From an uncultured Planctomycetaceae bacterium (GTDB lineage: Bacteria; Planctomycetota; Planctomycetia; Planctomycetales; Planctomycetaceae), in NCBI GenBank assembly GCA_963813715.1, contig CAWFAK010000008.1, positions 416,001-480,000 of the forward strand: a DNA stretch of 64,000 nucleotides. The letters run 5' to 3'. Every line of letters starts with the position of its first letter. The first letter of the stretch is position 1. Position numbers and translations under genes: made by a program. Below the pieces are notes generated by a model. The model did no database searches and was not told the DNA's origin. It was given only the letters and a program-made list of their open reading frames with translations. Shown in pieces: positions 59,105 through 64,000 of this stretch.

Positions 59105-59800
59105 TTAAACGCTCAGGTGCTTCGCCACGACGTCGGGCGTCAGCTGGGCCGTCTCGCCTTCAGCGACGACCTGGCCGCGGTTCATGATGTAGAAGTGGTG
59201 TCCGAACTCGCGGACGAAATCGAGATACTGCTCGACGACGACGATCGTCATCCCCAGGTCGTCGACGAACTTGTGCAGCACGCGGCCGATCTGATCGATA
59301 ATGCTCGGCTGGATGCCTTCGGTCGGCTCGTCCAGCAGCAGCACCTTCGGGCCGCCGACGAGCGCCCGGGCGATCGCCAATTGCTGCTGCTGCCCGCCGG
59401 ACAAATCGCCCCCCATCCGACCGGCCATGGTCTTGAGGATCGGGAAGAGCGAGTAAACTTCCTCGGGAATGGTGCGGGAGCGATCGGCGCGGGCCTGCAG
59501 ACCGATCCGCAGGTTTTCCTCGACCGTCAGCTTGGGAAAGATTTCGCGGCCCTGAGGGACGAGGGCCAGCCCCGCCCGTGCGCGGCGGTAGGCGGGCAGA
59601 CGCGTCAGGTCTTTGTCGCCCATCACCACAGAGCCGGCGGAGGGACGCAGCACGCCCATCAGGTTCCGCATCAGCGTGGTCTTGCCGACACCGTTGCGGC
59701 CCATCACGCAGGTCACCCGCCCCTTGGAAATCTCCATGTTGATGCCCCGCAGCGTGGGGATCGTGCCGTAGGAGAAGGAGAGATTGTGGATCGAAAGCAT
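59105..59800 (-). CDS. urtE: Urea ABC transporter ATP-binding subunit
   Basis: GRNGVGKTT, VPQGREIFP and LSGGQQQQLAIARAL...LDEPTEGIQPSII motifs. Confidence 0.92.
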   Translation of the reverse strand: MLSIHNLSFSYGTIPTLRGINMEISKGRVTCVMGRNGVGKTTLMRNLMGVLRPSAGSVVMGDKDLTRLPAYRRARAGLALVPQGREIFPKLTVEENLRIGLQARADRSRTIPEEVYSLFPILKTMAGRMGGDLSGGQQQQLAIARALVGGPKVLLLDEPTEGIQPSIIDQIGRVLHKFVDDLGMTIVVVEQYLDFVREFGHHFYIMNRGQVVAEGETAQLTPDVVAKHLSV

Positions 59801-59841
59801 GTCGCCGGCTTCGAGTTTTGTTCGTGCGTCGGGCGGGGAAC

Positions 59842-62277
59842 CTAGGCTTGTTGTCGAGTGCCGCCGCGGCCCAGGTAGGCCTCGACCACGCGGGGGTCGG
59901 CCTGCACCTGGTCGAGCGTGCCGTGGGCCATGACGCTGCCTTCATTCAGCACGGTGACGGGCGCGTTGAGCAGACGTACAAACTCCATGTCGTGCTCGAT
60001 CACCATCACGCTGTGCTCATCCTGCAGCTCGAGCAGAAGCTCGGCCGTGAGCGCCGTTTCCTCGTCGGTGAGACCGGCGGCCGGCTCGTCGACCAGGAGC
60101 AAATGCGGACTGGCCAAAAGCAGCATGCTGATTTCCAGCCACTGTCGTTGTCCGTGGCTCAGATATTTCACGCGTTTGCCGGCCTCACGGTCGAGGCGGA
60201 CTCGCTTCAAGATGGAATAGATCCGGTCGCGATCGGCCGGCGTGGCTTTGTGGCGAAAGTTGCGTTGCAGGGCCTGCCGCCCGGGAAGCGCCAGCTCCAT
60301 GCTCTCGAAGACGGTCAGCCCGTCGAAGATGCTGGGCGTCTGAAACTTGCGGCCGACGCCCAGTCGCGCGATGTCGACCTCCGGAATGTGCGTGATTTCG
60401 GTCTTACCGAAAAAGATCTGCCCGCTGGTCGCCCGGGTCTTGCCGCTGATCACGTCGCAGAGGGTCGTCTTGCCGGCACCGTTGGGGCCGATGACGACCT
60501 GCAGCTCATAGTAGTCGATGCTGAATTGGTCGATGTCGAGGGCTTTGAAGCCGTCGAAAATCACCTTCACGTTTTCCACCCGCACCAGCTCCGTGTCGAG
60601 CAGCGAGCGGTGCTGAGACGAAAGCGTGCGTTCGCGCTGCAGGCTGTTGACCCGCTGCAGTCGCGTCTGCAGGCTGGCCGAGTTCTCGCCACCGTTGCCC
60701 TTCCCTTCGCCGGTGCCGTCGGAAGTCTCGAGCGGTTCGTCGCCAGTGTCAGCGTCGTCGCGGCGGCGGCGGAGCCAGTGCCAGGCTTCGATGCCGCTCT
60801 TGGGCAGGCTCACCAGTCCGTCGGGCAACAGCAGCACGACGGCGACGAACAGGCTGCCCAGCATGAACATCCAGTAGTCGGACCGCCACGTGAATAGATC
60901 GTACAAGCGATCGGGAATGCGGCCCTTGGCGAACCACAACATCTCGTGCTGCGACGTGAAGTACATGTAGGCCAGCTTCACGACGAGCGTGCCCAGGATT
61001 GCCCCGGACGAGCGTCGCGCGACCGCCGACGGCCACCCAAATCACCACCATGATCGATTCGAGCACCGACATATTGTGCGGCGTGATGATCAGCTTTTGC
61101 GGCACATAGAGCATGCCGCCCAGCCCGGCGAGCATCCCGCTGAGGGCGAACACGAAGACTTTGAAGTGGTAGGGCTCGTAGCCGAAGAAGCGGAGGCGGT
61201 TTTCGTTATCGCGAACGGCGATCAACACCTGGCCGACGCGCGAAGTGATGACAAAGCGGCACAGCGCATAGGCGCCGCCCAAGGCGAGCACCGTCAGCAC
61301 GTAGAGCCCCATGCGGGTGTTGTCGTCTGTGAGCAAGTAGCCGGCCAGACGGATGTCGGAGATCGACGCCAGCGTAACCGATTTGCCGTCGCCTTCGGGC
61401 ACCTTGACGGCGTCAACCCCCTCCTTCATCGCCAACGGGTGCGTGCCATTAGGGACGCTGACAAAGTACGTCGAACCGCTTTCGGTAAGCACGGCCCCTG
61501 GCATCGTTTTGATGTATTGCTCGAGCGCGGGCGTGATCACGCTGGGAGACAGCTTCTCCTCGGTGAGCCGCGTCCGGCTTGAGCTGCACCTGGATCTTTT
61601 CCTGCGGCACCCAGGATCACCCGGTCGAAACGGGTGAGTCCGTTCGTGCCGCCGCATTTGATGTCGTTGAGCGTGAAGATCAGCCAGGCGGCCAGCGCGA
61701 TGGCTTGCGTGAGCACCGCAAAGAACACGCCCCGCACGCGGCTGCGAAACACAAAGAAGCCGATGACTCCGGCCACGGCACCGGGGATCAACGCGCCCAG
61801 AATCAGCGTGCTCCACAAGCTCCAGAACGGTTTCCAGAACCAGGGGACCAGCGCGTCGGAGGGTTGCTCGCCGACTTTGTACGGATAGACGACGTACAGA
61901 CAGGCGGGCAGCTTCCAGCCGTTGTGATCGATGATGCCTTCCGGCCCGCCGTGATGGGCCAGGTACATGCCCATCGCATAACCGCCCAGGCAGAAGAAGA
62001 GCGCCTGGCACAGGCACAACAGTCCCGCGTAGCCCCAAACCAGGTCGAGACTGACGGCCACGATGGCAAAAGCCAGGTATTGTCCCAGCAGGTTTACGCT
62101 GACGATGCTCATCTGGTCGTAGTGATAGAGCAGCGGCACCCCGACCAGCGCAACCAGAAAGATGACCCAGCTCGCTGCCGCGCGACGATAACGCTTCGAC
62201 GAACCAAGCAGACCGTTACGCGTCGGCATGAGCCCGGCGGACAGAGGCGGCTTTTTCGCTTGCGCCGTGTCAGACAT
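59842..62277 (-). CDS. urtC: Urea ABC transporter permease UrtC fused to the ATPase UrtD (indels near 61610, 61575 and 61010)
   Basis: LDLVWGYAGLLCLCQALFF, FRSRVRGVFFAVLTQA, GGTNGLT, AVRDNENRLRFFGY, VIWVAVGGRATL; the last TM helix runs in frame into FDGFKAL...GPNGAGKTT...GRKFQTP...LSHGQRQWLEI...VIEHDM...EAYLG (UrtD). Confidence 0.85.
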
Positions 62278-64000
62278 CGGCGAGCCTCCCCTTTGGCGGG
62301 AAGAGCCCGGCCGGTCTCCATTGAATGAAGATCACGACAGCCAACAGGATCAGCACGCGGGCCCAACGCGTCTGCACGTCCTGCCGAGCAGGTCGGTCCA
62401 CATCACGTTTCGCAAGAAGCCGATCGTCGCGGCCACCGCACCGAACACGTACAGCGAAAACAGCTTGCCGACTTGGGGCCGCGACCAGAAGCGGATGGCA
62501 AAAGGCAGCGGCACGGGGACCAGCAGGGTCAACCAGCCCCAACCGCGACTTTCGCGAAACGCGCGGACGGTGAGCACGATCCAGCAGGTCAGCATGATGG
62601 CCAGGCCGATCGAGAGAATCGCCACGCCGAAGGTGGTCGGTTCGAGCGAGCTTGTCCAGCACGCCCATGCCGAGCCCGGCCCAAACCGAGCCGGCCAGCG
62701 CGCCGACGCCGCCGACGACCACGACCAGGAACGAGTCGACGATGTAGTTCTGTCCCATGTCGGGCGTGACGCCGGCAATCGACGTCAGGGCATAGCCGGC
62801 GACGCCTGCCAGTCCGGCCCCCAGTGCGAACGTAAAGCCGTCGACGCGGCGGGTGGCGACGCCGAGCGTTTCGGCCGTCGTGCGACCCTGCACGGTCGCG
62901 CGGATCTTGAGGCCGATGGGCGTGAAGTTCATCAATAAATAGACGAAGAGCACGCACAGGGCGCACAGGCCCAGAATGAAGCAGCGGGCGTACTCGATGC
63001 CGAAGTCGGGCAGCACCTCAAAGCCGCCGATCAGCCACGTCGGGCTATTGACGCCGATATTGTCGCCGTAGCGGACGCGGGCCGCCTGAATCAGGATCAG
63101 GCTCACGCCCCAGGTCGCCAGCAGCGTTTCGAGCGGGCGGCCGTACAAGTGCCGCACCACGATCAGCTCGATCAGCCAGCCGACGGCGGCCGCGGCGAGA
63201 AAGGCAACCGGAAAGGCGGCGATGAAGTACCAGTTCGACGGATGATCGGGCGAATGGCCGAACGCCCGCTGCATTTCGTAGGTCGCGTAAGCCCCGATCA
63301 TCATCAGCTCGCCGTGGGCCATGTTGATGACGCCCATCTGGCCGTAAATGATCGACAGTCCGAGGGCCATCAGGATCAGCACGGAGCCGAGCGACAGGCC
63401 GTTGGTCAGGTTGCGGCCCCAACTGATCCAGTACTGGTAGCGTTCGACCGAATGGATCGCTTCCTGATAAACGGACAGCTCGCCGGCGGGAACGGTTCCC
63501 CCATCGATCTGCTGTTGGAAGTATTGCGCAGCCGGCAGGCTGTGGAGCTTGCCCAGCTCGGTGACGGCGGACAGGCGCTGGTCGGCGGGCTGGTCGGCCA
63601 CGTCCCCGGCCACGCGGATCATCAGCGCGCCTTCCCGCGCGGTGCGGCGGACGCGGCTGTCATCGTCGGACTCGGCGATTTTCTCGAGCGTCTCCAGGAA
63701 GGCGGAGTCGCGGCTCTCGCCCAGGCGGCGGGCCGAGGCGGCACGCTTCTCCGGGTCGCTCGACGTGTAATCCTGCAGGAAGCGAATCACATTTTGCAGC
63801 AGTTGCCCCTCCGGGCGCGTCGGCCGCAAGTTACGCAGGTCGTCCGCGCCGACGACCAACGGCTTCCCCTGCGGATCGGTGAGGGGTTGGCGACTGAGCG
63901 GATCGAGCAGCGCGGCCGTCTGCTTGCGACCGGCCGACTTGATCTCTTCGCAGAGCACGACCTGCTTTCTGAGCGCGTACAGGTTCCGTTCTTGAAACGA
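62270..64000 (-). CDS. urtB: Urea ABC transporter permease UrtB with an N-terminal HEAT-like domain (5' end outside the window; compensating indels near 62650 and 62380)
   Basis: GLSLGSVLILMALGLSIIYGQMGVINMAHGE, LYGRPLETLLATWG, YIVDSFLVVVVGGVG and FIQWRPAGLFPPKGR motifs. Confidence 0.9.
   Translation of the reverse strand, partial: SFQERNLYALRKQVVLCEEIKSAGRKQTAALLDPLSRQPLTDPQGKPLVVGADDLRNLRPTRPEGQLLQNVIRFLQDYTSSDPEKRAASARRLGESRDSAFLETLEKIAESDDDSRVRRTAREGALMIRVAGDVADQPADQRLSAVTELGKLHSLPAAQYFQQQIDGGTVPAGELSVYQEAIHSVERYQYWISWGRNLTNGLSLGSVLILMALGLSIIYGQMGVINMAHGELMMIGAYATYEMQRAFGHSPDHPSNWYFIAAFPVAFLAAAAVGWLIELIVVRHLYGRPLETLLATWGVSLILIQAARVRYGDNIGVNSPTWLIGGFEVLPDFGIEYARCFILGLCALCVLFVYLLMNFTPIGLKIRATVQGRTTAETLGVATRRVDGFTFALGAGLAGVAGYALTSIAGVTPDMGQNYIVDSFLVVVVGGVGALAGSVWAGLGMGVLDKLARTDHLRRGDSLDRPGHHADLLDRAHRPRVSRKSRLGLVDPAGPRAAAFCHPLLVAAPSRQAVFAVRVRCGGRDDRLLAKRDVDRPARQDVQTRWARVLILLAVVIFIQWRPAGLFPPKGRLADV

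Follow-up and report, generated by a model that had tools for sequence, protein, structure and literature searches.

The stretch of DNA analysed here (the window) comprises 64,000 nucleotides of contig CAWFAK010000008.1 in the assembly GCA_963813715.1 of an uncultured bacterium of the Planctomycetaceae, and on its minus strand, from 59105 to 64000, it carries the operon of an ATP-binding cassette (ABC) transporter for urea in the order urtB, urtC, urtD, urtE. We are highly confident that the window holds the genes urtB, urtC-urtD and urtE of a planctomycete urea ABC importer, and that the permease UrtC bears between its fifth and sixth transmembrane (TM) helices a domain of 90 residues that derives from the DN docking subdomain of efflux pumps of the resistance-nodulation-division (RND) type. 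The transport of urea is a prediction, for which a urease alpha gene on the same contig is supporting context.

The urtC-urtD fusion gene lies at 59842..62277 on the minus strand, with three single-base insertions in the present assembly, and as a stop-free frame leads from urtC across a linker to the end of UrtD at 59845, urtC and urtD are one gene. The N-terminal half of UrtC (61618..62277, minus; residues 1-220 of P0001, an intact metagenome protein of 808 residues) comprises TM1-TM5, covers positions 3-106 of the Pfam profile BPD_transp_2 and closes with the conserved loop motif GGTNGLTRFDRV; its helices in the AlphaFold model are 22-52, 58-81, 88-109, 154-179 and 183-202. It is followed by the insert (61346..61617, minus; 90 codons and two extra bases), an alpha/beta domain of the RND DN type in the TM5-TM6 loop, and then by the C-terminal half (60817..61345, minus; P0001 311-486) with TM6, a cytoplasmic coupling helix (RDNENR) and TM7-TM10, which covers positions 135-229 of BPD_transp_2 and has its AlphaFold helices at 318-344, 346-364, 368-394, 399-417, 422-440 and 465-482. 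The profile matches both UrtC pieces of the window (1.6e-10 and 6e-19). According to AlphaFold and alignment, a cytoplasmic linker of about 65 residues (60610..60816, minus; P0001 487-555) connects permease and ATPase, with an acidic stretch at 507-528, where the predicted local distance difference test (pLDDT) stays below 50, and a long conserved helix at 528-557. The gene ends with the ATP-binding cassette domain UrtD (59845..60609, minus; Pfam ABC_tran and BCA_ABC_TP_C).

The permease gene urtB (62273..64000, minus; Pfam BPD_transp_2 and HEAT_2), extends according to tblastn to about 64234, past the end of the window, and urtE for the second ATPase subunit (59105..59800, minus) is an intact open reading frame (ORF) of 231 residues, the product of which is 84% identical to UrtE of genome G005. 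The proteins of G005 all score above the cut-offs of the respective family models, UrtB with 352 bits versus 250 (TIGR03409), UrtE with 317 versus 286 (TIGR03410) and the urtC-urtD orthologue with 323 versus 296.2 for UrtC (TIGR03408), in two stretches split by the insert, and with 322 versus 304 for UrtD (TIGR03411). In their source annotation, UrtC-UrtD homologues carry the bare label 'UrtD', which overlooks both the fusion and the insert, a point of modest practical value.

Reading frame and placement of the insert

In the present assembly, the gene is spread over three frames of the minus strand. The first begins with MSDTAQ, runs from 62277 to 61609, where it ends with GGTNGLTRFDRVILG (61609-61653), and is taken up again at 61008; the second holds EKIQVQLKPDA (61601 to 61569), and the third leads from LTEEKLSPS to VAVGGRATLV (61567 to 61007), its part from LTEEKLSPS to DIRLAGYLL reaching down to 61331, after which the next membrane helix of UrtC follows. 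As P0001 aligns with the window in three colinear pieces (62277-61597, 61570-61010 and 61008-59845; tblastn, 96-97% identity), urtC-urtD is a single reading frame with three single extra bases. Contigs from three other sequencing runs, two of DNA libraries and one of an RNA library, are without these bases. The first break, at 61608, where the frame switches between RVILG and PQEK, and the second, at 61572, each have one letter less in the contigs X2 and X11; at the third, at 61009, one letter is missing from X3 (61009) and X11 (61010), and the tblastn pieces meet at 61010/61008. A 99%-alike contig (X1) breaks off at 61572, and its loose end carries on one base further along. No sequencing run shares half or more of the words of the window, the best share being 0.23.

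The three frame breaks are probably indel errors of the assembly, which has 82.6% completeness in 18 contigs. Indel errors throughout the assembly fit with a urtB that is also frame-shifted near its 3' end, where the true frame of 62350-62778 lies in another ORF and contigs of other runs add a G behind about 62381, and with a urease alpha gene that is split over two frames (G000:C8:555311-557019; L040/L041). With the frame breaks being assembly errors, the urtC-urtD gene is most probably intact.

In an alignment with L009, a canonical UrtC of 404 residues from another family of the same class, the insert comprises 90 residues (P0001 221-310; window 61346-61617) between RFDRV and AGY, whereas L009 has zero residues at this site, RFDQI being directly joined to AGFRL. 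A preceding sequence-only reading had assembled the segment from peptides joined across indels, all of which are found in the three frames of the minus strand; it had set the borders at 61340-61605, within about 12 bases of the aligned ones, and had rightly described canonical UrtC as short at this position. In the genus of the window, 8 of 12 genomes match the insert part of a query of 187 residues. Five of these have intact open frames of 819-823 residues that give UrtC-UrtD fusion proteins of 800-804 residues including the insert, and in three, the genome of the window among them, the frame is broken. In the 19 genomes searched outside this genus, the insert part of the query was covered in none.

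Three frame breaks within 600 bases could also mean that the segment has been mis-joined or that the gene is dead, and the sequence-only reading had itself wished to see the contiguity confirmed. Both junctions of the insert are bridged by contigs of other runs (X11 61229-61716, X2 61488-62064, X3 61214-61520), however, and together with the in-frame insert in the five same-genus genomes this excludes a chimeric assembly. As the contigs of other runs also omit each extra base, the related P0001 is intact, and the breaks in urtB and in the urease gene are of the same kind, as expected of an error-prone assembly, there is next to no likelihood left for a chimera or pseudogene. The urtC-urtD gene is real and probably used.

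The contig X11 originates from a metatranscriptome; its 489 bases are about 94% alike and extend across the whole insert and both flanks, which hints at an expression of the gene in a relative.

Origin and predicted structure of the insert

The insert belongs to the RND docking subdomains of the DN type, being closer to DN than to DC. The Pfam profile ACR_tran (PF00873) matches all five same-genus inserts with its positions 178/180-263 of 1021 at E-values from 9.1e-9 to 4.7e-3, in two cases above the gathering score of 28 bits, and among 52 diverse fusions it is found in 25 at E <= 0.01; for some UrtC-UrtD fusions, PF00873 is found precomputed in the Pfam column of the protein collection. A profile of the five inserts detects in the PDB the DC subdomain of ZneA (709-793) at 2.3e-5, the DN subdomain of CusA (193-274) at 6.6e-4, and MdtB (192-272), with a few weak unrelated matches (prefoldin, DnaK) ranking below the RND pumps. 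When the profile is made from 18 diverse inserts (profile A4), RND pumps are the only proteins among the 60 PDB matches listed. CusA is found at 5.5e-13 with both DN (195-274) and DC (731-813), MdtB at 1.6e-12 (189-272), then MtrD, AdeB and MexB, and then AcrB at 4e-4 with residues 178-272, the DN of AcrB spanning about residues 181-273. In CusA, DN reaches 32 bits and DC 15 bits. Judged by these profile matches, the insert seems to lean to the CusA and MdtB types.

Among 1.84 billion representative proteins, the five-insert profile has 22 matches at E <= 0.001. In 14 of them, the proteins are 847-1629 residues long and are matched near 173-266 or 579-913, and the one that was read is RND-pump-like; two are UrtC fragments, two are short fragments, and four are hit in 5-8 repeated stretches, of which two were read, both repetitive and taken as spurious. 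A search of the ESM Atlas with the insert, leaving out the ACR_tran clusters, gave no usable match. The possibility that the host protein itself is an RND transporter was rejected, since ACR_tran is confined to its positions 178-263 of 1021 and the host consists of a BPD_transp_2 permease and an ABC ATPase, with a single subdomain in common with the RND pumps and their porter subdomains PN1, PN2, PC1 and PC2 absent.

The predicted structure agrees with the profiles. An AlphaFold model calculated from the alignment of 18 inserts (pLDDT 82) has the order beta-alpha-alpha-beta-beta-alpha-beta-beta-beta, and in VIA-align it superimposes on AcrD (4r86_B) with Z 11.1 (root mean square deviation 3.0, 94 residues aligned) and on MexY with Z 10.5, model residues 8-98 lying on chain residues 178-275. 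In a structural search of all 48,161 chains, 4r86_B was the sole match above Z 8, and the runner-up, at Z 7.5, was among generic ferredoxin-like folds. Foldseek ranks the periplasmic AcrD fragment 4r86 first (E 4.4e-3, TM-score 0.69) and next AcrB, MexB, CmeB, AdeJ and CusA, the RND chains having probabilities of 0.93-1.00. The sequence-only reading had recognized an AcrB/CusA-like DN/DC docking subdomain in the UrtC loop and had named profile and Foldseek comparisons as the means to check this; both the sequence profiles and the predicted structure uphold the assignment.

In the full-length AlphaFold model (pLDDT 77.7, and 71-89 within the insert region), there are ten TM helices, and the insert lies between TM5 (183-202) and TM6 (318-344). 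Basic residues precede TM1 (KRYRR) and are found in the turn between TM4 and TM5 (RSRVR), an amphipathic helix with RDNENR follows TM6, where permeases of this family commonly have their coupling helix, and the fused ATPase makes the C-terminus cytoplasmic. As five TM helices precede the insert and five follow it, and as the N-terminus and the ATPase are cytoplasmic, the insert would be periplasmic, in a loop at the outer opening of the permease. As to solved structures, Foldseek with the full-length model returned only ATPase domains and ABC exporters among the matches listed, a PDB sequence search with the complete fusion only ATPases among the 60 matches listed, and such a search with canonical UrtC no match.

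Distribution, evolution and genomic context

A search with the full-length fusion found 533 proteins of 444-1414 residues at E <= 1e-10. About 116 of the best 120 listed are full-length UrtC-UrtD fusions, and the sources named for them belong to the Planctomycetota (Pirellulaceae, Planctomycetaceae and others). After thinning 116 proteins of at least 680 residues by k-mer similarity, 52 non-redundant fusions were obtained, 47 of which have 85-155 extra residues at the same site, whereas four, P0037 and P0042 among them, have no insert and one has a stub of 13 residues. Fusions with the insert are as far apart as about 52-56% identity. All insert-bearing proteins seen in this search, which covered lengths of 444 residues and more, are fusions, and the four shorter ones that were read (P0039, P0051, P0096, P0129) are N-terminally truncated fragments. 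Both a word-indexed search with the insert alone, which gave two proteins, and the five-insert profile, which gave two UrtC fragments, understate this spread in comparison with the full-length search. In a sample of 301 genomes from the whole phylum, only five were found to have the UrtC-type insert (63 bits or more, in frames of 788-804 residues where unbroken), the genome of the window and four of one other genus, and the other 19 matching genomes have RND-sized frames only, at 46 bits or less. The sequence-only reading knew of no such architecture and had advised to look for it in other UrtC homologues: full-text searches of the literature found no account of an RND docking domain inside UrtC or UrtC-UrtD, and the PF00873 matches of the automatic annotation appear undiscussed, but the architecture is not unique to the window, being the common state of the planctomycete fusions.

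In a permease tree calculated without the insert columns (FastTree; backbone poorly resolved and root set by a single outgroup), presence and absence of the insert need three changes, and therefore some lineages do without it. Since the inserts are homologous and at the identical site, a single gain with later repeated losses is the simplest reading.

The inserts vary in size. P0043 (839 residues) has a stretch of 162 residues at the insert site, and the only EF-hand_7 match of Pfam among the 52 fusions is probably that of P0043, in which, as judged by eye, an Asp-rich stretch is nested in the DN-like domain. A sub-clade with P0047, P0082, P0118 and others (967-1074 residues) has inserts of 110-141 residues, with an extra charged segment after the second helix that looks helical by its sequence, and has about 200 residues more between permease and ATPase than the forms of 800 residues.

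In addition to a signal peptide, UrtB has HEAT repeats in an N-terminal extension of about 270-290 residues (window 62273-64000, minus; L014:10570-12588). The UrtB of the genus of the window carries, towards its C-terminus, about 75 further residues with two hydrophobic helices, a segment that is missing from UrtB of G275, a genome of the other insert-bearing genus. The operon of G005 consists of urtB (672 residues), urtCD (801 residues) and urtE, without an adjoining urtA; the genes upstream are unrelated, those closest to the operon coding for a PI-PLC-like protein and a sulfatase. In the genus of the window, UrtA is encoded elsewhere (contig C17 of G000; 524 bits versus a cut-off of 493), whereas in genome G008 the urtA gene adjoins the operon. 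Besides this operon, G008 has a second urt locus, which is canonical and lacks the insert.

The UrtA found at L019:1483-3039 (minus; contig C17 of G000), and likewise in L020, L018, L036 and L021:1489-2760, is cleanly circularly permuted: the last ~110 residues of the canonical protein come first, followed by a Pro/Gly-rich linker and canonical residues 106-388. With the canonical UrtA of G275 as reference, BLASTP pairs residues 234-517 of the permuted form with 106-388 (77% identity) and residues 106-222 with 388-498 (69%). In G275 the gene order is a porin-like ORF, a canonical lipoprotein UrtA, urtB and urtCD. As the insert occurs with the canonical UrtA in G275 and with the permuted UrtA in the genus of the window, it is not tied to one form of the binding protein, and a coupling of the insert to the permuted UrtA was rejected for this reason. 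The porin-like ORF of G275 (L034:3-791, plus) ends with GAQFQF and matches porin_ExtI (NCBIfam) at E 2e-18, which is below the cut-off, and it has no Pfam match; by its sequence, it is likely an outer-membrane porin gene.

Proposed role and known systems

Taking together the identity of the domain, its location and a function in protein contacts, the best explanation has a probability of roughly 0.55: an RND docking subdomain has been placed at the periplasmic side of a urea permease, where it contacts other proteins. The functional part by itself is tentative. By analogy with the P2 loop of MalF in the maltose transporter, the insert would serve as a platform for protein contacts at the periplasmic face of the permease, an RND protein-protein interface put to new use rather than a dock for TolC, and the likeliest partners would be UrtA, which binds urea, and/or the HEAT-repeat domain of UrtB on the periplasmic side.

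Several observations weigh against this explanation. The window-type insert alone reaches only E 0.082 (11 bits) with ACR_tran, which is weak, albeit at the same positions, and an in-frame piece of 79 residues of the insert from the window is without any match to a Pfam profile. The pattern noted by eye in the sequence-only reading thus agrees with the family profile and the orthologues, but it is non-significant in the window-type sequence on its own, and because of this weakness the homology of the window copy rests on the orthologues and the family profile. In the structural comparisons, Foldseek with the insert model had no PDB match at E <= 0.001 (best 4.4e-3), and most RND chains are at about Z 7, level with generic ferredoxin-like folds. 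The periplasmic side follows from predicted topology. In the tree, strongly supported branches force at least two changes of the insert state, and not one of 200 bootstrap trees allows a single change. In non-synonymous divergence (dN), the insert exceeds the permease and ATPase parts by a factor of 3-9, in relative and rough terms, as the synonymous divergence (dS) is above 1 or saturated in every pair; dN/dS ratios were dropped as unreliable on account of this saturation. Finally, E226 is the sole residue of the insert that is at least 90% conserved. Fast divergence, low conservation and repeated loss are more in keeping with a scaffold or interaction surface than with a catalytic or a precise gating role, and they also keep alive the view that the domain is a mere passenger.

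Such a passenger, once captured as a fragment of an RND pump, would fold but add little, and it would be kept by inertia and lost now and then, which would agree with a faster evolution than that of the remainder of the protein, and with the absence from four of the 52 fusions, the stub in a fifth and the two to three or more state changes on the tree. That the same site and the same predicted fold are nevertheless kept in 47 of 52 fusions, down to 52-56% identity, and that some lineages have elaborated the insert further by extra helical segments or an EF-hand pair, makes a passenger rather improbable. Also improbable is a function as periplasmic lid or gate, in which the domain would cover the translocation pathway and adjust access or coupling with no separate partner to bind. 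The predicted position in the periplasmic TM5-TM6 loop beside the invariant GGTNG motif would be suitable for that, and in the related BtuC-type fold the equivalent loop contributes to the periplasmic gate, but the low residue conservation of the insert suits a scaffold more than a precise gate.

The sequence-only reading had suggested a docking across the envelope, with the domain linking the importer to a porin of the outer membrane or to an adaptor that spans the periplasm, in the manner of DN/DC and PN2, which in RND pumps contact AcrA and TolC. The homology to an adaptor-contacting RND subdomain and the porin-like ORF directly upstream of urtA-urtB-urtCD in G275 speak for it. Against it stand that no adaptor (membrane fusion protein) or outer-membrane-factor gene was found among the 12 ORFs scanned in a region of 20 kb that surrounds the operon of G005, that porins beside uptake operons need no physical docking, and that a single 90-residue domain per transporter is much smaller than the trimeric RND funnel, so that this docking must be regarded as quite unlikely. 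Less likely still is its extended form, in which the RND-derived domain holds an adaptor or outer-membrane channel, and porin, tethered UrtA and UrtB/UrtCD are physically coupled into one route of uptake across the whole envelope; if true, this coupled route would be the import counterpart of the tripartite efflux pumps.

If borne out, the insert of the urea permease would be a clear and unusual case of a folded periplasmic module that crossed between two unrelated transporter superfamilies, its source being an RND exporter powered by protons and its new host an importer that runs on ATP and depends on a binding protein, and this RND-derived module has been kept across a broad and environmentally common clade of Planctomycetota. 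It is a natural experiment on what an RND docking subdomain can do outside a pump, and it bears on the question how binding proteins are engaged by ABC importers of the LivHM/Urt type, a type whose permeases have no solved structure that a PDB search would find.

Of the closest known systems, canonical UrtC (TIGR03408) represents the host protein. The UrtC of the window is of the same permease family and has the same motifs, its operon partners urtB, urtD and urtE are present, and urease is found in its genome, but canonical UrtC has no residues at the insert site and no fusion to UrtD. In the maltose transporter, the P2 loop of MalF holds the maltose-binding protein. Like the insert, P2 is a folded periplasmic domain of some size that sits in a loop of a permease, in an importer that depends on a binding protein, although it is unrelated in fold and origin and stands in a different permease family. 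MacB is comparable as an ABC transporter with a periplasmic beta-alpha-beta module as in RND pumps, but it is an exporter of a different ABC fold. The periplasmic regions of MacB superimpose on the insert model with Z 7.0 (5c59_A) and Z 6.3 (3ftj_A), level with generic ferredoxin-like folds, and no sequence-profile link to MacB was seen with the five-insert and A4 profiles against the PDB.

The insert is most similar to the DN and DC subdomains of the RND pumps themselves (AcrB, AcrD, MexY, CusA, MdtB, ZneA), with which it shares profile homology, the best structural match and a size of about 85-95 residues, as well as the periplasmic location, which for the insert is deduced from topology. 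In the pumps, these subdomains are paired and belong to a proton-driven transporter with 12 TM helices and a porter domain, whereas the insert is a single copy in the permease of an ABC importer. As described for AcrB (PMC4403515), the TolC-docking domain is composed of the subdomains DN and DC, the AcrA domains contact DN and PN2, and DN extends a long hairpin into the adjacent protomer. At the position of this inter-protomer hairpin, the insert model has a short beta2-beta3 turn, of only two residues between the strands 48-51 and 54-58.

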